From a virus (Duplodnaviria > Heunggongvirae > Uroviricota > Caudoviricetes), in the IMG/VR virus record IMGVR_UViG_2778261527_000008: a stretch of 35,461 nt of DNA. One strand, given 5' to 3'. This document shows, one piece after another, positions 1 to 34,023 of the stretch. The position numbers and the translations under genes were made by a program. Below the pieces are notes generated by a model. That model did not search any database. It was not told where the DNA came from and was given only the letters and a program-made list of their open reading frames with translations. Numbering within the stretch: position 1 is the first letter of the stretch; each line of letters begins with the position of its first letter.

Positions 1-21
1 ATGCGAGGGACAGTCGAAATT

Positions 22-351
22 ATGCGTTATCCCGTCACTCTTACACCCGCGCCGGAAGGCGGTTATATGGTTTCTTTTGTGGATATCCCTGAAGCGTTGA
101 CGCAGGGCGAAACTGTCGCTGAAGCGATGGAAGCGGCAAAAGATGCTTTACTGACCGCATTTGATTTTTATTTTGAAGATAACGAGCTTATCCCGTTACC
201 TTCGCCATTAAATAGTCATGATCACTTTATTGAAGTACCTTTGAGCGTCGCCTCTAAAGTATTGCTGTTAAATGCTTTTTTACAGTCAGAAATCACTCAG
301 CAAGAGTTAGCCAGGCGAATTGGCAAACCTAAATGTTGTAAACCCCAATAA
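22..351 (+). CDS. hicB: HicB-family antitoxin, C-terminally divergent/truncated (frame open from window position 1; first plausible ATG at 22)
   Basis: Translation MRYPVTLTPAPEGGYMVSFVDIPEALTQGETVAEAMEAAKDALLTAF... matches my recollection of the enterobacterial HicB N-terminal domain; ORF ends ...RRIGKPKCCKPQ* at 349-351 where canonical HicB continues into a DNA-binding C-terminus; GC content drops after ~334. Confidence 0.55.
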   Translation: MRYPVTLTPAPEGGYMVSFVDIPEALTQGETVAEAMEAAKDALLTAFDFYFEDNELIPLPSPLNSHDHFIEVPLSVASKVLLLNAFLQSEITQQELARRIGKPKCCKPQ

Positions 352-574
352 CTAAAATTTTTGCAATAAAAAGCCCCATCTCAAGGACAAGGCTTAGAAA
401 TCAACTAATTAACATAGTTTCCAGATCAAAAGGGTTATAATGAAATCCATAAAAGGTGATCTGTTAGCTGGGTGCTGTATATCTAAAATGTTACTTAATT
501 AATATCGTTCTGGTGGTTAGCTTTCATCGCATCCCACCAGTCTTTTGTAATCTTCATGCTATTGAATTTCATAG

Positions 575-1345
575 TTATTTGCACCCGTACTGGTCAACAT
601 AGATTTTAGAATATCCTTGTTTTTGTACTTCTAAGCGAATCATATCTTGATTATCACGCCACACATAATATTTTTTGTTATCCACTTGACCTTCATATTG
701 CATAGCACCATTCTGATGCGTCACGGTTTTTGTTTTTGCTTTATGTGCGTTATAATTATCACGATACACAAATTCAATAATTTCCCCGTCTTTTACTTTA
801 AGTTTAAGTTCACCAGAGTTATAACGAGGATAACTAGGGTCTTTAACTACTTTTGTTTCTACCCCGTCGTGGATTTCCCATTCATAGTGAACATCGCATT
901 GTAATTCCATATCGCCTGTAAATCCTTTTGGTTTCTCTTCAACCTTCGGTTCTTCTACCACTTTTTCTTCCTGTTTCGGTTGTTCTTCTTCAACCTTCGC
1001 AGAAGTCTCTGAAACGCTCCCTGACGCGGTTTCTTCTTTAGATAATACATTCATCAAGTTTTGGATTTGAGCGTTGTATACAGCCTCCAGTGGCTGAATC
1101 TGCCCGATATTGATCATTGTATCACGAACAGTTTTATTCCAGTTGCGTTGCTCTTGTTTAAGCGACGGGTCAATCTTAACAGCCTTAACATATACTTCAT
1201 GAAGTTTAGAATCCAGTGCGGAGATTGACTCATTAGAACAAATAAACTTCTCTGATTTGGTAGTAGCTTTAGCGCAATCAAAGGACGCAGCATTAGCACC
1301 GAAAGCAGTAGCAGAAAGCACGATAGCAGCGATAATGTTTTTCAT
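575..1345 (-). CDS. secreted protein with DUF1311/LprI-like N-terminal domain, Glu/Lys-rich linker and C-terminal beta-rich domain (moron candidate)
   Basis: 256-aa ORF; signal peptide MKNIIAAIVLSATAFGANA; FDCAKATTKSEKFICSNESISALDSKLHEVY resembles the DUF1311 signature; RBS AAGAGG upstream of ATG. Confidence 0.45.
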   Translation of the reverse strand: MKNIIAAIVLSATAFGANAASFDCAKATTKSEKFICSNESISALDSKLHEVYVKAVKIDPSLKQEQRNWNKTVRDTMINIGQIQPLEAVYNAQIQNLMNVLSKEETASGSVSETSAKVEEEQPKQEEKVVEEPKVEEKPKGFTGDMELQCDVHYEWEIHDGVETKVVKDPSYPRYNSGELKLKVKDGEIIEFVYRDNYNAHKAKTKTVTHQNGAMQYEGQVDNKKYYVWRDNQDMIRLEVQKQGYSKIYVDQYGCK

Positions 1346-1703
1346 TTTATACCTCTTTTGGTATGGACTGACTTTTAGATGCTTACTTTATTGATTTTTG
1401 ATATTTTTTCAATTATTGGGATGAGATTTAGTAATTAAATTAAGAAATTAATGCTTGACAAATTAAAAAGGTACTGTTCCACGGATGAAATAAAGGGAGT
1501 TTTCGGCACCCCGGTATTTGATACGCGTGTGAGATTTTAAAACGTGATCAGTGCAGTCCTAGCGCGGTCGCTACGCGACTATTAACCCACTTCCTAGCCC
1601 TTACCATTACTGGATCTTTCCCTTCGTTAGAATGCGATTTAGGCGCTTAGATTGTGCGTAAAACCAATAAATAAAATTACGCAAATTTAATGGAGGATAA
1701 CCA

Positions 1704-2258
1704 ATGAAAGAAGAATTAACCCTTACAGAAATTTCCCGTTTATACGGCTATTCATTGAATGGTGGCGCTAAGCGATGGATAGAAAGGGGATTGCCATTTA
1801 ACACCAATACCCGCCGCGTGCCAGCCAAAGAAGGAACAGAATGGGTCTTGAAAAATATTATCAACCCGCTTAAACAAACTTCTATCAAAGAACAAATCGA
1901 TGTAGAGAAATTACGCCGTGAACGTGCTTTGGCAGATGCAGCCGAACGAGAGAACCAGGAAAAAATGAATCTCCTGATTCCTGTCGGTTATGTAGAACAG
2001 GAACTAGCGGAATATTGCGGGAAAGTGAAGCAGACTATTTTGCAGATCGCCACAATTGACGTTTTGGAAGTTCTCGAATCTGCCACCGACCAGAAAACAT
2101 TGAAGAACAAATTAAGGGAGATCATCGAGCGTCGTTTAAATGAAGTAGGGGACTTGTTCGAAAATGCTGATTTGGGAGAAGACGAGGAAGAAGAATTACC
2201 ATTAATGGATGAACCGGAAGAAGAACCAGAAGAAGACGATGAATTTGATGTGTCTTAA
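1704..2258 (+). CDS. terminase small subunit, Nu1-like (winged HTH N-terminus, acidic C-terminus)
   Basis: 184 aa; N-terminal LTLTEISRLYGYS...WIERGLPF HTH-like segment, EKLRRE segment and acidic tail reminiscent of lambda Nu1 architecture; RBS GGAGGA; same strand as terL. Confidence 0.5.
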   Translation: MKEELTLTEISRLYGYSLNGGAKRWIERGLPFNTNTRRVPAKEGTEWVLKNIINPLKQTSIKEQIDVEKLRRERALADAAERENQEKMNLLIPVGYVEQELAEYCGKVKQTILQIATIDVLEVLESATDQKTLKNKLREIIERRLNEVGDLFENADLGEDEEEELPLMDEPEEEPEEDDEFDVS

Positions 2259-2461: not shown

Positions 2462-2514
2462 TTAAATCGATGAATTGAACTATAGATGATGGTCGTGTTC
2501 AAAGAGGATTATCT

Positions 2515-2688
2515 ATGGATCTTTTTGTCTACTTTGCTACTCTGCTGTTTTTGACTATCGTCGCTGGCATTAAATTGATTTTTATATCGCTGGTGGTGTT
2601 TTTCAAATTTCTAATCGGTACGCCTTACGGCTGGGTATGCTTCTTTTTGTTTATTCTTTTTAGTTGCTGTAAAAAGGATACTAAATAA
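2515..2688 (+). CDS. small membrane protein (57 aa, two predicted TM helices)
   Basis: ATG at 2515 with AGAGGA RBS; MDLFVYFATLLFLTIVAGIKLIFISLVVFFKFLIGTPYGWVCFFLFILFSCCKKDTK. Confidence 0.3.
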   Translation: MDLFVYFATLLFLTIVAGIKLIFISLVVFFKFLIGTPYGWVCFFLFILFSCCKKDTK

Positions 2689-2846
2689 TAGTGTAATCTG
2701 CCTTTTCTCCTTATGGTTATTAACAGGGGATCTTCTTTGAGGATTCCCGATTAAAAGCCATAAAACACACTCCAGTACAGTGTTTTCATAGTCAGTGATC
2801 TATACAACACAAAAACATAACAAGTATAGATTGAGTATTAATCCTC

Positions 2847-2872
2847 CCGCCCCTTCGGGGCGGTTATTTTTC
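2847..2872 (+). terminator. rho-independent terminator (UUCG tetraloop hairpin + U tract)
   Basis: ccgcccc-ttcg-ggggcgg followed by ttattttt. Confidence 0.6.
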
Positions 2873-2948
2873 TGGCTTTAAAGAATAATGTAGCATTATG
2901 TTCATTATAACCTCATCTTTGTTGTGCAAACCTAACCTAAACTTACTA

Positions 2949-2974
2949 GGGACTCTTCGGAGTCCCTTTTTTTT
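2949..2974 (+). terminator. rho-independent terminator (second, tandem)
   Basis: gggactc-ttcg-gagtccc followed by 8 T. Confidence 0.6.
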
Positions 2975-3215
2975 ATGCAACAATTCGAAGTGTAAGTTTC
3001 TTATGTTGTGTAGGTTTAGTTTCATTTCGCCACTCAGGGAATACATGATCCATCATAACCGCATTAGTCTCATCAATCAGCTTTAAGGACTTTCTCAACG
3101 CCTTATTATCAGCTTTAAGAGTTTTAATCTCTGATTCCATCGCTACCATTCTTTCTTTCATTTTGGTAATTTCTAACATCAGATTACCCAGAAATTCTTT
3201 GTTTTGATTCATCAT
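2973..3215 (-). CDS. hypothetical coiled-coil protein (80 aa)
   Basis: ORF with GAGGGG RBS; heptad-like KxL periodicity; no recognisable catalytic motif. Confidence 0.4.
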   Translation of the reverse strand: MMNQNKEFLGNLMLEITKMKERMVAMESEIKTLKADNKALRKSLKLIDETNAVMMDHVFPEWRNETKPTQHKKLTLRIVA

Positions 3216-3230
3216 AGATTCACCCCTCTA

Positions 3231-4232
3231 TTAAGCTGCGTATGCGTAGGCGCTGTAGTTGGTGTCGTAGATAGCGTCATGCAGTGCCATCTGTGCTTCG
3301 CGGATCTCGTCTTCGTTTACTTCAATCTCTTCTTGTTCTTCTTCGGTATCTTCCCAAGTGGTTTTGAATTTAGCCATAAAGTTATTGCGCAGGGATTCAA
3401 AGTTAGTAACAGGTGCGGATTTTTCTTCAACCGGAACTACTACCGGATCAGCTTCTTTCTGTTCTTCCTGTTCTACTTTTTCACCATTACCCCAGCGATA
3501 GTTAAGGAGTTCTTCCAGTTCTTCATCAATGGATTTTTCTTCAACTGCTTCAACTTCAACCGCTGCTACTTCGAAAGTGGTTTCCTGTGCTGCCAGTTCA
3601 GCTTTCAGAGATGCGTTTTCAGCTTCCAGTTCAGCAATGCGTGCTTTCAGTGCTTCAACTTCGGAAGATTCAACCACTGCAACTTCTTCTTTAACTTCTT
3701 CAACTACTACCGGAGCAACTTCTTTCTGTGCTTCTTTTTTGCAGAAGAAGGAGGAAGTAACCTGTAATGCGTGGTTGTAGAAGGAACCGCCTTTAGCGGT
3801 GTTAACAGTACCAGAAACATCCTTTACAGTGGATTCGGTAGCAACAGTACGGAAGCGTTTTGCGACTTCCTGGGTCTCTACGCCGTATTCGTTACGCTTG
3901 CTCTTGTGATGCATTACAGCACGGAAGCCGGAAGCAGTTTTAACAACAGCCAGATAGTAAGTTTCATCGGCTTTAACAGCACGAGCGAAGCAATAAACGG
4001 ATTCACCTTCTACCAGTGTAGGTTTAACGTGACGTTTGTCGAAACGGTTAGTGATCTGCCATTCAGCACCGTCTTTGATGCCAGCATTCTGACGCATTTC
4101 GGTCAGAGTCTTACCGGATACTACTTCAAAGGATTTGTCTTGTTTGCTTGCTTTACCTTCCATGACGGTAATGTTCAGTTTGCCGTTGGATTTAATAAAC
4201 AGGTTGAAGGTGATGCGCTTAGAATTTTTCAT
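3231..4232 (-). CDS. hypothetical protein: basic N-terminal domain, coiled coil, strongly acidic C-terminal tail
   Basis: 333-aa ORF with GGAG RBS; EVEALKARIAELEAENASLKAELAAQ coiled coil; Glu-rich tail; family not recognised. Confidence 0.5.
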   Translation of the reverse strand: MKNSKRITFNLFIKSNGKLNITVMEGKASKQDKSFEVVSGKTLTEMRQNAGIKDGAEWQITNRFDKRHVKPTLVEGESVYCFARAVKADETYYLAVVKTASGFRAVMHHKSKRNEYGVETQEVAKRFRTVATESTVKDVSGTVNTAKGGSFYNHALQVTSSFFCKKEAQKEVAPVVVEEVKEEVAVVESSEVEALKARIAELEAENASLKAELAAQETTFEVAAVEVEAVEEKSIDEELEELLNYRWGNGEKVEQEEQKEADPVVVPVEEKSAPVTNFESLRNNFMAKFKTTWEDTEEEQEEIEVNEDEIREAQMALHDAIYDTNYSAYAYAA

Positions 4233-4349: not shown

Positions 4350-4532
4350 TTACCAGACCTCGGCGGTAATCTTTACTTTAATGTCATACTTCTTTAAGAG
4401 TTTGTGGAAGGTTGATTGATCAATACCTTCACCTTTAAACCATTCACCCATCACTACATCAGGTGTCAGTTCAAAATAACGCTTTGCCATTTCTAAAACG
4501 ATTTCACGAGTGAACTTAACAGGTCGTGCCAT
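4350..4532 (-). CDS. small hypothetical protein (60 aa), possible DNA-binding regulator
   Basis: ATG preceded by AGGAGG RBS; first gene leftward of the noncoding control region. Confidence 0.4.
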   Translation of the reverse strand: MARPVKFTREIVLEMAKRYFELTPDVVMGEWFKGEGIDQSTFHKLLKKYDIKVKITAEVW

Positions 4533-5561: not shown

Positions 5562-5799
5562 TGGTTATCCCTTCGGGATTGCAACCTTCGGTTGCTAAAT
5601 TGCTTCCTGATTATTATTTCTCCAAAAGAAAGATTCTTATATTCTAAAGATACTTCTTCGTTTTGATGATGATTTAATCAAACCATGAAGGAGGGCTTTA
5701 GCCCGACTGAATACAATCACCTTTCATAATAACAAGAATTTTCTCTTTATAAATAATAGTGAACTTACTTGATTCACTTTCTTTTAGAGGATTTCCACT

Positions 5800-6633: not shown

Positions 6634-7440
6634 ATGAATACTGTTACTGCTATGAATACTACTAAAACCGCTTCCGTGTCTCTGGTTGTTGATAACACCA
6701 AACCGCTGACCATGTCTTCTCGTCAGATCGCTGAATTTACCGGAAAGAAACACTTTCACGTAAAACGCGACATTCGCGAAATGCTGATTACCTTAGAATT
6801 AGATGAATCCAAATTTGGATGCATCTTTTTTGATCAATATGGACGCGAGCAAACAGAATATCACTTGAATGAAGAACTGACTCTGACTCTTGTCACTGGT
6901 TACAATATCCAGATGCGAAACGCGGTTATTCAGGAATGGAAGCGACTGAAAGAAGAAAATGAAAAACTTCGCTCTACTCCGGTTAACCCGTATGCAGACT
7001 TTGAAGAAACCGACTGGATCGAACTGGCGTTAAAGAAAACTCGCGAGAACAAGCAACTGATTACTCTACATCATCGCAAATCCGTAGATAGCCATTCAAT
7101 GACGCGTTTGTTAGGTGCTAAAAAGGGCGCTACGAAGGTTAAAGAAGCACTGACGGCCTTACGTACTGCCGGATACATTGAGCGCGTCTATGATGAAAAT
7201 AACAAGCCGTGTGGGTATGTTGCTAATGATTCCGCGATACCGTTTTGCAGCATGAACGCTCACTATCAACTTTCTTTCACTGTTGATGTGCTTCCGGTGC
7301 TGGTTGAATTGGGTGTTCTTGAAGAAGAACAAAAAGCAGCTTTGACACTGCCTAAACCGAATAACACGATCATGATTCAGAATAAAGCGACTATCATGAT
7401 TCGTCAGAATGTTGGATCGCTAGAACACTTCGGACTGTAA
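6634..7440 (+). CDS. phage regulatory protein, Rha-family antirepressor-like
   Basis: 268 aa; N-terminal SSRQIAEFTGKKHFHVKRDIREML typical of Rha/ORF6N DNA-binding domain; AAGGGG RBS. Confidence 0.55.
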   Translation: MNTVTAMNTTKTASVSLVVDNTKPLTMSSRQIAEFTGKKHFHVKRDIREMLITLELDESKFGCIFFDQYGREQTEYHLNEELTLTLVTGYNIQMRNAVIQEWKRLKEENEKLRSTPVNPYADFEETDWIELALKKTRENKQLITLHHRKSVDSHSMTRLLGAKKGATKVKEALTALRTAGYIERVYDENNKPCGYVANDSAIPFCSMNAHYQLSFTVDVLPVLVELGVLEEEQKAALTLPKPNNTIMIQNKATIMIRQNVGSLEHFGL

Positions 7441-7782: not shown

Positions 7783-8388
7783 TTATTTAGAGGACTTACA
7801 TTTTATCGGAAAAAGTTCTCCATCGTCAACCGACATAAAGAACTCTGCCTTAATCCCGTACTTCTTCAACCGTGAATAATATGTACCCCGACTAATATCA
7901 ACCTTGCGCAGCACTTCGAAGAACTCTTTAGGATTCCTGTAATAGTGGCTATATCGCACGTTAGCGAGTTCTACAAACAATTCCCTTGTATCACCATAGC
8001 CTTTCTTGAAAGCCACGTTACGATAGCGTGTAATGGCATGATTCAATCTCTTCTGTTTAAGCACTTCCCTGATCGGCTTCCACTGCAACCGATAGATAGG
8101 ACCGTCATCAATGCGATAATAACGCTTGATATCAAAATCAAACCAATCTCGGACTCTCCGAAACTCTGTATGTGATGTTCTATGCTTCTTAAAGAAGTTG
8201 TGAACGTCTCTATAGCCATTATCACGGTAAAATTCTATTAAAATCTCTTTCGCTTCCTCACGGCTAAACCCAGATGTTGTGTAATCGGTCTTTAAGTGCT
8301 TATGTTTTACTGGCAAACGATATTCATGATCGGTACAACAAGACAAGGCTAATTCTACTTCATCTCTTTGTTGCTGATTAATTAGCAT
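7783..8388 (-). CDS. hypothetical basic protein with C-terminal HTH-like segment
   Basis: 201-aa ORF; Arg/Lys/Tyr-rich; ISRGTYYSRLKKYGI resembles an HTH recognition helix. Confidence 0.45.
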   Translation of the reverse strand: MLINQQQRDEVELALSCCTDHEYRLPVKHKHLKTDYTTSGFSREEAKEILIEFYRDNGYRDVHNFFKKHRTSHTEFRRVRDWFDFDIKRYYRIDDGPIYRLQWKPIREVLKQKRLNHAITRYRNVAFKKGYGDTRELFVELANVRYSHYYRNPKEFFEVLRKVDISRGTYYSRLKKYGIKAEFFMSVDDGELFPIKCKSSK

Positions 8389-8474: not shown

Positions 8475-10382
8475 ATGAAACTGATTTCTAATAAGGCAAA
8501 ATTAAAAAAGATTCTCAGAAATGCAGCCAAATATATTACGCCACCGCCTAAACTCCTTCCATCGGAATGGTGCGAAGCGAATCTAACGCTAGTCGATGGT
8601 CCTCGTGCTGGGGATAAAGTTAAATTGCTGTCATTTCAGAAAGGCATGATTGATGCTCCTTTCCTTGAGAAGAAAAAGAAGTACGTTTTTTGTACGAGTG
8701 CGCAGATCGGAAAGACGACCATCATGTCAGGGATCATGTTTAACCAGATGGCAAACGATCCGTGTAATATCATTATCGGGCAAAGTACCGCTAAAGAAGT
8801 GGCTATGTACTTGAATACTAAGATCCGTCCTTCTATTGAAGCATGTCCGGCATTACAGGAAGTGGTAACAGATAAGAATGATCGTAATGCGGTAAACAAC
8901 AATAACCAGATTCAGCTAAAAACAAACCATTTCCTTTACATGGTTTCTTTGACCAGTCCTTCAAGTTTGCGCGGGCGTACTGCCAAGTTAGGGATTGTAG
9001 ACGAATGCGACGCAGCAACAATCACCGAAGAAGGTTGCCCGGTGGCACTAACTGCAAACCGTTTAACTACCTTTGGTGATGAAGCTCGATTGATTGTTTC
9101 TAGTACCCCGACCAATAAGCTGGGAATCATTAACCAGCAATGGTTATCAAGTGATATGCGTATGTTTTTTGTTCCGTGTCCTCATTGCGGGGAACACCAG
9201 GTGATCGAGTGGGAAAACGTTCAATTTGAATGGCGTAACATTGATGGTAAGAACTTACCCGATCCTGATACCGCTCGTTATATTTGCCCCCACTGTAAGA
9301 ACGCATGGACAGAAGGGGAACGAATCAGGGCAGTAGCGCAAGGCGAGTGGAGAGCAACCCGTGAAAGTGAAGTAGCAGGATTCTGGATCAGTCGTCTGTA
9401 TTCACCTTTCAGCACGATCCGCGCTTGTGTGGTTGATTTTAGTCATGCGTGGCAATCCTTTGATTTACAATCCTTTTTTAACACCGTGTTAGGCAAGGTA
9501 TACGACGATCAGGACACGGCAGTAGAAGCAAATGAACTGGAACAACTCAAAACAGATGTTTCTATCGAGAATATCCCTGATGACGTGATTTTCTTGTGTG
9601 CGGGTACTGACCAGCAATTAGATCGCGCAGAAACTACGATCATGGGCGTGGCAAAGGATAAGATTTATATTCTGGATCACCGCAGCTTTTACGATCATAA
9701 CTGTGAACGATATGAATCACCTGTATGGGATAGATTAATCAACTTCCATAAAACCAAATTTACTACTGTATCGGGTGATCGTGTTCCTATGCTCGCCAGC
9801 TTCCTTGATACATCGAACGGTCGATTCACTCAAGCTGGATACCGTATTTGCGGCAAGTGGAAGAACTTACACGCTATCAAAGGTAGTTCTGCTGGTAACG
9901 CTCCGATCATTCCGGTTAAACCTACCCGCACAGGTGGTCATGAATTGCTTATGCTGGGCGTTAACGTTGGGAAATCCGCTGTTCGTGAAATGCTGGTTAG
10001 AAACCTGAAAGATAATCCTCATATTGGCTTAGAAATATCAGAAACCATTCCTGATGATTATCTCGATCAGCTTTTGAGTGAATCCATCAAGCGTACTACT
10101 ACTGGCGTGCGTTGGGTGAAAAATCCAGGTAGTACCCGAAACGAGGCTCTCGACTGTCTGGTTTATAGCTATGCTGCTTCTCGCTACGTTCTTTCAAAAA
10201 TGTCATGGGATAAACTCATTGCAATGAAAGACAGCTTAAACCGTGTTGTCGAAGAATCCGTAGAAGCTCCTAAATCGCAATCTGACGAGCAAATCGAAGA
10301 AAATAAGCCAATCACACGACCACAACGTAAAAACATCGCCAGACGCCCAAATAGAGGCCGTAGCTGGGTAACATCGTTCTAA
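8475..10382 (+). CDS. terminase large subunit, lambda GpA family
   Basis: 635 aa, size and motifs (zinc-finger-like CPHCG...CPHC segment) consistent with GpA-type terminases; GAGGG RBS. Confidence 0.8.
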
Positions 10383-31776: not shown

Positions 31777-31955
31777 GTTAGAATATGCTGGCGACGTTAG
31801 CTATATTTCTGACCATTTTTTCATTATAGACAAATATACCGCAGACGATAAAGTCGTTTTTGACGAAGTAGATCCGTCTCTGGTTGAAGTAATGAAAGAA
31901 CCGGAAGACCTAGAGCTTGATTTAAGCCAATTATAGACTCTCTAACGCAATTAAA

Positions 31956-32280: not shown

Positions 32281-33960
32281 TTAAATTCCAAATTCTTGTA
32301 ATGGACCTGGTATTTCTTCTTCTGGTTTCCAGTTCTTATCTGTCAGCATGTCTAAACATGGATGCAGAACAAGCCCGTTACTCTCCAGAATCTGCCTATC
32401 ATTGATAGTCTTCAAATCAACGAAGATCCGGCCTTTCCTCGGTCCTCTTGAATTTTCTATTACAACTCTCTGGGTCTTGCCATCGATGTATTCCAGTACA
32501 AACAAGTTTTTGTACTTGTCAATCCTGCTACACCCGATCCGTTTTAGAGCTTGCTTAATCTTAAACCGGACCTTAATGCGATCCTCGTTGTAAACATCTT
32601 CTAAATCAAATTCTGCGAGCTTCTCCCAGCCTTGAGAGTCAACAGAATACATTTCCTCTTCTGCCATCTTAAGTTGATTGTAGAGTGTTTCACGCTCGCT
32701 ATTGAGGGTAGTAATCTGATCGGCTAGCTCCTTCGTTGCTCCTGTCATAGCAGAAAGGGTAATCAGGTTATCAATCTTGCGTGATATTTCATCAATCTGT
32801 ACTTTCAAAGCCGGAACCGGATTAGCCTTATCTTCAGCAATCCAGATTTTATCAGCCAGCAATTGCAATACAGCTTTCTCTAATTGGTCGCCGCGAAAAC
32901 TCCAGTTTGTATGCACACATTCAATACGACTAGAGCGCATTGCATCGCATGAATAACGATATTGGTTAGGCCGTCTGTTTGTTCCTTTCACCTTAACCAT
33001 AGCGGAACCGCAATGTTCACATTTCAATAGACCAACACCACTAAGCAAGGGAATAGGTTTAGCTTCTTCTTTGTCTCCAAAGTTACATGCTCTAACACCA
33101 ATGCTTTTCTTAAGGTGATAAAACTCAGCGTCATCTAGCACACGAGGATAATAATCCTTTAACTCATACTTAACGCCATCTACAGAGATTTCCTTGATAC
33201 CAATCAAAGCGCGGGTATGGAACAACCTTTCAATCATTGCCCGTGACCAGTTTGAATGCCTCTTGTGACTTGCGGCTGGTGGTGGTGTGTATGTCGCGTT
33301 AAGGTGATCCAGTATCTCGGCGGTTGACCGTCCATTCCTGCGTAATTCCACAACTTCCTGAACAATAGGGAAGAAGACCGGATGAGGAAGCACATAACCA
33401 GATGTGGTATCAGTCCACCACATATTCTTTCCAATTTCCTCGATTGCAACAGCCGGATTTTGTGGATTTTCTTGATGAGCTTTAATCTTAATCAGTGCGC
33501 TTGAGTTAGTACGATTGCGCTTAGTCTGGCTTTCCTCATTACCACGGATGAATAAAAGGATGGAGAACATCAGGTCCATCGGGTTAGCGGTAACAGTATC
33601 AAGCGAGTAGATCTTGTTATCCATGCCAGTAACAATGGTTATCCCCCTACGGATGATTGAAAGGAATAACTCCTGCGCACTGACAATATCGGCACGGGAT
33701 AAACGGTCCAAGTTTTCGATGAATAGCCAGCTACCAACAGGAACGGATCTACCTATTGCATCAAGGAAACGAGATAGCGCCCCTGTTTTGGAGTTAGCAC
33801 CCTTAAACGCAGATACACCCAGATCCTGATAATCATTTACCAGTTCAAGGTCATACTTTACCGCAATCTCTCTAGCCATCCTGATTTGTCGTTCATAACT
33901 CGAACCATCATTCTGACGCATAGACGAGAAGCGAATATACGAATACAGTTTAGTTTTCAT
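32281..33960 (-). CDS. large serine recombinase (integrase/resolvase family)
   Basis: 559 aa from ATG at 33960; N-terminal resolvase catalytic motif YIRFSS..Q; Cys-rich zinc ribbon CEHCG...C..C; coiled-coil segment. Confidence 0.8.
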   Translation of the reverse strand: MKTKLYSYIRFSSMRQNDGSSYERQIRMAREIAVKYDLELVNDYQDLGVSAFKGANSKTGALSRFLDAIGRSVPVGSWLFIENLDRLSRADIVSAQELFLSIIRRGITIVTGMDNKIYSLDTVTANPMDLMFSILLFIRGNEESQTKRNRTNSSALIKIKAHQENPQNPAVAIEEIGKNMWWTDTTSGYVLPHPVFFPIVQEVVELRRNGRSTAEILDHLNATYTPPPAASHKRHSNWSRAMIERLFHTRALIGIKEISVDGVKYELKDYYPRVLDDAEFYHLKKSIGVRACNFGDKEEAKPIPLLSGVGLLKCEHCGSAMVKVKGTNRRPNQYRYSCDAMRSSRIECVHTNWSFRGDQLEKAVLQLLADKIWIAEDKANPVPALKVQIDEISRKIDNLITLSAMTGATKELADQITTLNSERETLYNQLKMAEEEMYSVDSQGWEKLAEFDLEDVYNEDRIKVRFKIKQALKRIGCSRIDKYKNLFVLEYIDGKTQRVVIENSRGPRKGRIFVDLKTINDRQILESNGLVLHPCLDMLTDKNWKPEEEIPGPLQEFGI

Positions 33961-34023
33961 ACCATTTCCAAACAAAAACGCCCCTACCGCGTATTATAAC
34001 GATAGGGGCCAGGTGATTAAAGA

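Follow-up and report, generated by a model that had tools for sequence, protein, structure and literature searches.

The question raised by this locus is whether a gene named for the inhibition of lysozyme protects a lysogen from lysozyme or serves some other purpose. The gene lies at positions 575 to 1345, on the minus strand, near the left end of a 35,461-nucleotide stretch of prophage DNA (IMG/VR virus record IMGVR_UViG_2778261527_000008, Caudoviricetes; the whole stretch is referred to here as the window), and its product is called "lysozyme inhibitor LprI family protein" in RefSeq. An earlier note, made from the DNA alone, had proposed that it is a terminal moron encoding a periplasmic lysozyme inhibitor or envelope-protecting factor, a candidate for lysogenic conversion. 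The gene is found here to be mainly one of obligately virulent T4-like phages, the Krischvirus group to which RB49 belongs, in which a nearly constant N-terminal domain is joined to one of at least four strongly diverged barrel types, and the barrel is replaced as a discrete cassette. It looks more like a phage competition or envelope protection factor than a classical lysozyme resistance gene. The database name was already known; the distribution in Krischvirus, the constancy of the N-terminal module, and the exchange of barrel cassettes are new.

The gene and its predicted product

The features of the gene and of the sequence in common with Krischvirus are as follows.

575..1345, minus strand: coding sequence of the exported two-domain LprI-family protein (ATG start, 256 amino acids [aa] plus stop)
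1352..1357, minus strand: Shine-Dalgarno sequence AAGAGG, 6 nt 5' of the ATG
1289..1345, minus strand: predicted signal peptide, aa 1 to 19, with a signal peptidase I site between A-N-A and A-S and without a lipobox (sequence inspection; predicted local distance difference test score [pLDDT] below 50 over aa 1 to 20)
1031..1285, minus strand: N-terminal DUF1311/LprI-type helical domain, aa 21 to 105, with the Cys24/Cys36 pair (Pfam PF07007, AlphaFold2 helices, alignment)
923..1030, minus strand: disordered E/K/P-rich linker, aa 106 to 141 (AlphaFold2 pLDDT below 50 for aa 105 to 139)
578..922, minus strand: C-terminal eight-stranded beta-barrel, aa 142 to 256, with invariant Cys150 and Cys255, hypervariable, here of type A
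537..960, no strand assigned: cassette replaced between prophages that are otherwise at least 97% identical
499..1351, no strand assigned: segment common with Krischvirus genomes, from 6 nt 5' of the ATG to ~75 nt beyond the stop
495..572, minus strand: 25-codon open reading frame (ORF) remnant MKFNSMKITKDWWDAM..., with its first 16 codons corresponding to the 5' end of RB49p261 as annotated

The gene runs antiparallel to a gene for a TerS-like protein (1704 to 2258, plus strand) and to that for TerL (8475 to 10382, plus strand). Together with the reading frame, the AAGAGG sequence, and the signal peptide, this bears out the earlier description of a secreted protein with its own ribosome-binding site, encoded opposite the packaging genes. 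The N terminus, which reads MKNIIAAIVLSATAFGANA up to the cleavage site and AS beyond it, has a basic n-region, a hydrophobic core of ~15 residues, and an A-x-A cleavage motif; the signal peptide was judged by eye from the sequence, and AlphaFold2 modeled residues 1 to 20 as unstructured. A lipobox of the form L-[AS]-[GA]-C is absent because the first cysteine sits 5 residues past the A-x-A site (...TAFGANA/ASFDC, the slash marking cleavage); the lipobox of Escherichia coli MliC is LLSGC. We infer from the export signal that the protein is periplasmic.

The DUF1311 assignment held up in a Pfam search, in which PF07007 (LprI/DUF1311) matched aa 24 to 77 with a score of 23.6 bits, the gathering cutoff being 22 (E value of 7.2e-5, profile positions 1 to 72 of 106). 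The match thus places the protein in the family by threshold, but it is marginal and partial. All 19 family members searched matched PF07007 at an E value of 0.01 or less, the best at 9.7e-6. Canonical members of PF07007 have four conserved cysteines (PMC7933661); in this family Cys24 and Cys36 are invariant and there is no second pair within aa 21 to 105, the other two cysteines being in the barrel. AlphaFold2 applied to the family alignment predicted helices at residues 30 to 37, 39 to 58, 62 to 80, and 83 to 105 (pLDDT of 62 to 79), a model of a four-helix domain at aa 30 to 105 that agrees with the exported, all-helical small domain of PF07007. In PHROGs the whole protein corresponds to phrog_14799 (2e-119), which is of unknown function there, and phrog_4675 matches aa 1 to 132 only.

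A constant N-terminal module and an exchangeable barrel

In an alignment of 19 sequences, aa 1 to 105 are almost invariant, whereas beyond the linker only Cys150, Gly161, and Cys255 are the same in all. The barrels form at least four classes, with 11 to 38% amino acid identity to the window barrel, or 57% for the A' subtype. All of the classes occur in Krischvirus contexts, and types A, C, and D occur in prophages too.

Type A and subtype A': window and UPWr_E1
Type B: RB49
Type C: Phi1-like
Type D: a further class

Six prophages at the same hicB site have flanks that are at least 97% identical, and in four of them (L005 to L008) the part corresponding to window positions ~537 to 960 is at 30 to 50% identity. 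One breakpoint of this cassette falls in the linker, with homology breaking at window positions ~938 to 975. This is a discrete cassette replacement of the barrel. N-domain DNA is 93 to 99% identical in every pair except those with the divergent contig L016 (80%). Barrel DNA is 22 to 70% identical between different types, and type A barrel DNA is 93 to 99% identical between prophages and a Krischvirus contig. Nonsynonymous (dN) and synonymous (dS) divergence and their ratio (omega), estimated by the method of Nei and Gojobori, were as follows.

N-domain: dN 0.010 to 0.015, dS 0.04 to 0.24, omega 0.06 to 0.39 (0.06 to 0.15 in 8 of 10 pairs)
Barrel within type A: dN 0.018 to 0.059, dS 0.05 to 0.27, omega 0.15 to 0.37
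Barrel between types: dN 0.21 to 0.56, dS above 1.5 and saturated, so that omega is not meaningful

The barrels are thus old alleles, each under constraint, that are carried on a young, homogenized N-terminal module. This is the pattern expected for a specificity determinant that is under balancing or frequency-dependent selection and is shuffled by recombination.

Distribution and relationship to Krischvirus

By tblastn, 57 Krischvirus records contain the full-length protein, and two JSE records contain its N-terminal part. The resulting total of 59 records equals the number of Krischvirus genomes detected via gp5, and hence all of them carry the gene. The N-terminal module was present in 25 of 5,426 complete E. 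coli genomes, always as one chromosomal copy; 22 of these 25 carriers matched at least 80% of a query running from hicB through the gene to the TerS-like gene, and each of the six carriers inspected sits at hicB. Nine prophage-derived contigs in IMG/VR (23.6 to 36.3 kb, six of them 35 to 36 kb) carry the gene at the contig end, and no relative was found in the GTDB species-representative genomes. The gene is therefore mainly one of obligately virulent T4-like phages. Because of this, lysogenic conversion cannot be its primary role: all of the ~59 Krischvirus carry it versus 25 of 5,426 E. coli genomes.

The first 408 nt of the gene (938 to 1345) have a counterpart, at 95 to 97% identity, in a hypothetical gene that RB49 shares with Phi1, JSE, GEC-3S, and further Krischvirus, and UPWr_E1 is one member of the group that matches along the entire gene. 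Positions 938 to 1351 are 97% identical to RB49, and positions 499 to 1351 are 79% identical to UPWr_E1 by blastn, or 89% over two megablast pieces that cover ~70% of the segment. The RB49 copy, p262, lies in a block of small early ORFs (a hyperplastic region) between gp52 and holin t, with an early-type promoter of the sigma-70 kind (TTGACA-17-TAAGAT) 35 nt upstream; the gene is thus probably expressed early. Its neighbors in the Krischvirus loci are small early ORFs, and no effector gene lies beside it. The gene downstream of p262 in RB49 is p261, the 5' end of which persists as the remnant at 495 to 572 in the window. This remnant and the distribution of the gene point to transfer from Krischvirus into a temperate phage, a direction that is only probable because the true start codon of p261 is uncertain.

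Matches to the N-domain alone also occur in 24 Klebsiella, 28 Aeromonas, and 2 Salmonella phage records (tblastn). The homolog in Klebsiella phage vB_KpnM_Clarke_MM3 (positions 2501 to 3256 of the extracted locus L024) has 251 aa and the same layout of signal peptide, N-domain (40% identity), and K/E/P linker, followed by an unrelated C-terminal domain with two cysteines of its own, and it lies ~2 kb from an annotated Spackle gene. The partial match of phrog_4675 fits this occurrence of a different C-terminal domain on the same N-domain.

Relationship of the barrel to MliC and PliC

Modeled alone by AlphaFold2, the barrel gave a pLDDT of 92, a predicted template modeling score (pTM) of 0.84, and eight main strands, in a predicted fold that resembles PliC and PhiA. 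The model has the eight-stranded arrangement with cysteines on the first and last strands, and these two cysteines are invariant in every barrel type, as expected of a periplasmic disulfide. The cysteines of E. coli MliC are at similar places in its sequence.

Sequence comparisons did not extend this likeness. The barrel has no Pfam family, and PF09864 was unmatched at E values of up to 10 for any of 14 barrels. Searches of PDB sequences with the barrel profile and with the full protein retrieved no relative, MliC and PliC included; the full-protein search gave nothing at E values of up to 10. Against 1.84e9 representatives, the barrel profile recovered only its own family, three repetitive proteins that were taken as spurious, and one 66-aa fragment. 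For a direct comparison with MliC, E. coli mliC was taken from K-12, its homologs were collected, and fragments of solved MliC and PliC chains were added; hhalign of the barrel alignment against two such MliC/PliC alignments gave probabilities of 3.4% and 0.6%. The real score topped all 60 of 60 column shuffles, only narrowly. The MliC/PliC alignment is invariant at S70, G71, Y74, K84, and G85, and the inhibitory loops S-x-S-G-x-x-Y and Y-x-x-x-T-K-G are not conserved among the barrels: the equivalent stretch, NGAMQY...YYVWRDN, differs between barrel types, and the only invariant barrel residues are C9, G20, and C114 (Cys150, Gly161, and Cys255 of the full protein). After the Pfam search, the PDB profile search, and the two hhalign runs, homology to MliC by sequence was rejected, the excess over shuffles being faint. 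The predicted fold resembles that of PliC and MliC, and membership in that family is not supported by sequence.

What DUF1311 proteins are known to do

The name of the gene rests on LprI of Mycobacterium tuberculosis (Rv1541c), an exported protein in which an N-terminal DUF1311 domain likewise precedes a small C-terminal beta-barrel and which comes under the same family name, PF07007. LprI is a lipoprotein with a barrel recognizable as MliC (PF09864), whereas the window protein has a signal peptidase I site, no lipobox, and no MliC sequence signature, and it is further distinguished by a long disordered linker, a hypervariable barrel, and its being phage encoded. In LprI the MliC domain is reported to suffice experimentally for lysozyme resistance, and ScwA, a periplasmic protein with DUF1311 only, confers no lysozyme resistance; it controls the levels of MltD and Slt, and its overexpression leads to lysis (PMC7933661). 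The step from LprI to a lysozyme inhibitor is therefore unsupported for the window protein, which lacks the MliC signature, and "lysozyme inhibitor" is an inherited label rather than a demonstrated property of DUF1311.

ScwA of Salmonella is like the window protein in being a soluble, disulfide-containing periplasmic DUF1311 protein that was horizontally acquired; it differs in that its DUF1311 is C-terminal, with no barrel, and in that it is chromosomal and regulates MltD and Slt without inhibiting lysozyme. Secreted DUF1311 proteins are also found as immunity proteins, shown or predicted, beside lysozyme-like effectors of type VI secretion systems (T6SS) in the Pantoea hcp island (PMC9796082) and, as cognate or predicted immunity proteins, with WHIX effectors (PMC12135965) and as Etsi4 of enterohemorrhagic E. 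coli (EHEC) (PMC12981562). Like the window protein, EHEC Etsi4 and the orphan immunity genes of the Pantoea hcp islands encode secreted DUF1311 proteins, and theirs are implicated in the neutralization of periplasm-acting cell wall toxins; unlike it, they adjoin effector genes and lack a beta-barrel, whereas the window gene is phage borne with no effector near. Through these immunity proteins DUF1311 is linked with the antagonism of cell wall enzymes that act in the periplasm. The remaining close systems are inhibitors of peptidoglycan hydrolases of the PliC/MliC family (E. coli MliC, Brucella PliC and PhiA, and Neisseria ACP) and Spackle of phage T4.

T4 Spackle (gp61.3) is made early and inhibits the gp5 tail lysozyme in the periplasm (PMC7677548). 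It resembles the window protein as a small exported protein of the early region of a T4-type phage; there is no sequence relationship, size and architecture differ, and binding of gp5 by the window protein is putative. RB49 has a gp5 with a lysozyme domain, and no homolog of T4 Spackle (Sp) or Imm was detectable in its genome, the sole tblastn match of Sp being a spurious one (E value of 0.049) inside gene 41. The absence of Sp and Imm homologs leaves room in RB49 for a functional analog. Should gp5 be among the targets at all, the N-domain, which is invariant, would be a better candidate for binding it than the barrel.

A possible role in envelope-level conflict

We hypothesize that the gene encodes a Sec-exported, disulfide-stabilized periplasmic protein, in which a constant helical DUF1311/LprI domain is connected by a flexible linker to a variable eight-stranded barrel, and that it belongs to the early accessory genes of virulent Krischvirus (RB49-like, T4-type), from which a temperate phage of ~35 kb integrating in hicB may have captured it as a terminal, separately transcribed moron. 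The protein would be a stoichiometric binder or inhibitor, in the periplasm, of an agent that comes from outside and attacks or passes through the envelope; the first-choice target would be an enzyme that cleaves peptidoglycan (a phage tail lysozyme, for example, or a lytic transglycosylase) or a lysozyme-like toxin. The infected or lysogenic cell would be shielded from superinfection or from lysis from without, with the barrel cassette setting the specificity. We tentatively favor such a role, whether it excludes superinfecting phage or prevents lysis from without, as a possible, rather than a probable, explanation. It is suggested by the architecture (signal peptide, DUF1311, linker, and barrel, in the domain order of M. 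tuberculosis LprI), by the invariant pair of barrel cysteines, by the secreted DUF1311 proteins that give immunity to lysozyme-like or cell wall T6SS effectors, by the presence of the gene in the early region of every Krischvirus together with a gp5 that in RB49 is without Spackle or Imm, and by the signature of specificity, in which low dS in the N-domain, saturated dS between barrel types, and cassettes in flanks at least 97% identical are combined.

Several observations weigh against this explanation. The DUF1311 match is marginal and partial, in a domain that lacks the second cysteine pair, and the barrel is without the MliC/PliC sequence signature, PF09864 being absent and the SGxxY and TKG motifs unconserved. 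A search for known defense systems with PADLOC gave no match, and a known defense system was rejected on this basis. In the prophage, promoter-like sites are not above chance, with 3 found versus 4.3 expected. Across all Krischvirus, the gp5 proteins are at least 98.8% identical irrespective of barrel type, so that barrel diversity does not track gp5, and an arms race between the two was rejected. A Klebsiella T4-like phage carries Spackle and a distant homolog together, which weakens the case for a plain Spackle substitute.

A more speculative and rather doubtful extension would place the protein in an uncharacterized class of phage periplasmic specificity factors, in which the constant DUF1311 domain is a handle and the exchangeable barrel (another domain in the Klebsiella phages) chooses the phage component or toxin to be neutralized, the alleles being an old polymorphism traded between virulent phages and prophages by way of the N-terminal module.

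Other roles have to be weighed against inhibition at the envelope. A lysogenic conversion factor directed at animal (c-type) lysozyme, which it would inhibit in the periplasm to raise resistance to lysozyme or serum, would agree with the PF07007 match, the RefSeq name, the domain order of LprI, a barrel fold like that of PliC and PhiA, and a moron-like site by attL with a terminator-like hairpin. We consider it quite unlikely, as the LprI activity has been assigned to MliC and the DUF1311-only ScwA confers no resistance, the barrel has neither an MliC signature nor conserved inhibitory loops, and the gene is universal in an obligately lytic group and rare in E. coli, which has an MliC of its own; animal lysozymes are moreover conserved, which would leave at least four deeply diverged barrel types unexplained. 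The protein might instead provide orphan immunity against lysozyme-like or other cell wall toxins of rival bacteria (T6SS effectors or pesticin-type bacteriocins) and so keep the host alive; a constant-plus-polymorphic design with ancient allele classes resembles the diversity of immunity genes, and secreted DUF1311 proteins stand beside lysozyme-like T6SS effectors with immunity shown or predicted. Neither the prophage nor any Krischvirus locus has an effector gene adjoining the gene, though, a virulent phage with a short latent period profits little from toxin immunity, and DUF1311, the part implicated in immunity, is invariant rather than polymorphic. Such a role is of similarly low probability.

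Superinfection exclusion could also operate by receptor masking or by a block to DNA entry, as with T5 Llp or Cor, the barrel binding a host envelope protein that is used by the phage. Llp-type exclusion is established (PMC9586334), barrel diversity would parallel receptor diversity, the Krischvirus gene is ~3 kb from the gene for the receptor-binding long tail fiber, and the prophage has a homolog of that fiber (67% over 913 aa). The protein is not a lipoprotein, however, and has no membrane anchor; the fibers are similar in RB49 (type B), in L011 (type C), and in the window (type A), with no covariation of fiber and barrel evident in this small sample of loci, and physical linkage alone could explain the association. 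Receptor masking is likewise quite unlikely. It is very unlikely that the protein modulates peptidoglycan enzymes of the host, in the manner of the control of lytic transglycosylases by ScwA, to tune wall remodeling or the timing of lysis. The effects of ScwA on MltD and Slt levels and the lysis caused by its overexpression offer a precedent, and the Krischvirus gene shares its region with holin t, but host enzymes are conserved, so that the hypervariability of the barrel would go unexplained, and ScwA, with its C-terminal DUF1311 and no barrel, has a different architecture.

Setting within the prophage

The left end of the window contains the following features in addition to those of the gene.

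1..333, plus strand: host DNA, with hicB truncated after codon 104 by the insertion (attL junction 333/334)
371..395, minus strand: intrinsic-terminator-like hairpin, a 10-bp stem then a T run, 3' of the gene and just inside attL
1385..1412, minus strand: weak sigma-70-like promoter candidate TTGAAA-16-TAAAGT, 9/12, the only promoter-like site 5' of the gene

Homology to E. coli K-12 hicB stops exactly at window nt 333, and the gene is for that reason the first inside the left end of the prophage, next to the junction as the earlier note had placed it. By the insertion (1 to 351, plus strand), hicB loses its last 35 codons (K-12 HicB has 138 aa) and gains 5 foreign codons; hicA upstream is intact in most carriers and frameshifted in strain EC05 (L006). 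In related genomes annotated with the Prokaryotic Genome Annotation Pipeline (PGAP), a truncated hicB is likewise followed by "lysozyme inhibitor LprI family protein." The neighbors in the prophages are the truncated hicB and the TerS-like gene, with no effector gene adjoining. The gene is moron-like in its terminal position, its own ribosome-binding site, its foreign origin (97% identity to Krischvirus), its opposite orientation, and its terminator-like hairpin (4 such hairpins were found versus 1.0 expected); its candidate promoter is not above chance. No gene-free relative was found.

Among the genes of this temperate phage are those for a portal of the lambda type, a fused protease and capsid protein, and a tip protein of the J type. 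Integration is probably the task of a large serine recombinase (32281 to 33975, minus strand; domains Resolvase, Recombinase, and Zn_ribbon_recom) encoded ~1.5 kb before the window's right end; the remainder of hicB and attR were not found within the window. In strain C325 (L025, 878 to 896 kb), further lambdoid early, lysis, and terminase genes lie ~31 to 49 kb to the right of the hicB junction, which hints at another prophage, either in tandem or close by, and hence at a right boundary that varies by host. The TerS-like gene (phrog_57, 1.5e-11) and the TerL gene are ~6 kb apart, an unusual layout; between them lie unrelated genes, among them one for a Rha/Ant-type regulator (6634 to 7440) and several minus-strand ORFs without a family match at 2973 to 3215, 3231 to 4232, 4350 to 4532, and 7783 to 8388.

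The side tail fiber of the prophage (16332 to 19862, plus strand; 1,176 aa, with Gp34_trimer and Peptidase_S74 domains) is a second module common to the temperate phage and virulent Krischvirus, matching the distal subunit of the RB49 long tail fiber, p251, at 67% over 913 aa and 72% in DNA over 2.7 kb; p251 is ~3 kb from p262. Two short patches resemble RB49 as well, window positions 31838 to 31906 at 88% over 69 nt (RB49 100898 to 100966) and 20585 to 20649 at 80% over 65 nt (RB49 46064 to 46128, the 3' end of the gp38-like p079), which suggests repeated recombination between the two phage lineages. An AT-rich patch of ~76 nt at 5607 to 5683 is 75 to 82% identical to four intergenic sites of RB49 (at ~62.8, 97.5, 97.7, and 150.0 kb) and may be a repeated regulatory element; it has no tRNA inside and is not recognizable as a promoter early stem-loop (PeSL). 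In the Krischvirus-like contigs L011, L012, L014, L016, and L017, the region of the gene also has a Tad2-like ORF, with weak to faint Pfam matches, and an ORF of the T4 Y16F family. The adhesin region by holin t varies among them: L014 and L016 encode an adhesin of the gp38 type there, L011 and L012 have no adhesin, and L017 has three small ORFs.

Implications

The database name "lysozyme inhibitor LprI family protein" over-interprets the gene, as it rests on a domain without shown inhibitory activity, and should be read with caution. The locus clearly illustrates how genes have recently passed between obligately lytic phages and temperate ones, and the constant handle with its swappable barrel provides a natural series of specificity variants. 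If the protein does act in exclusion or envelope protection, it would fill the vacant role of Spackle and Imm in RB49-like phages, which are widely used in phage therapy cocktails, and it would explain why some E. coli lysogens might resist RB49-like phages. If it is in addition a specificity factor, the prophage would have gained a ready-made means of excluding the very virulent phage that supplied the gene.

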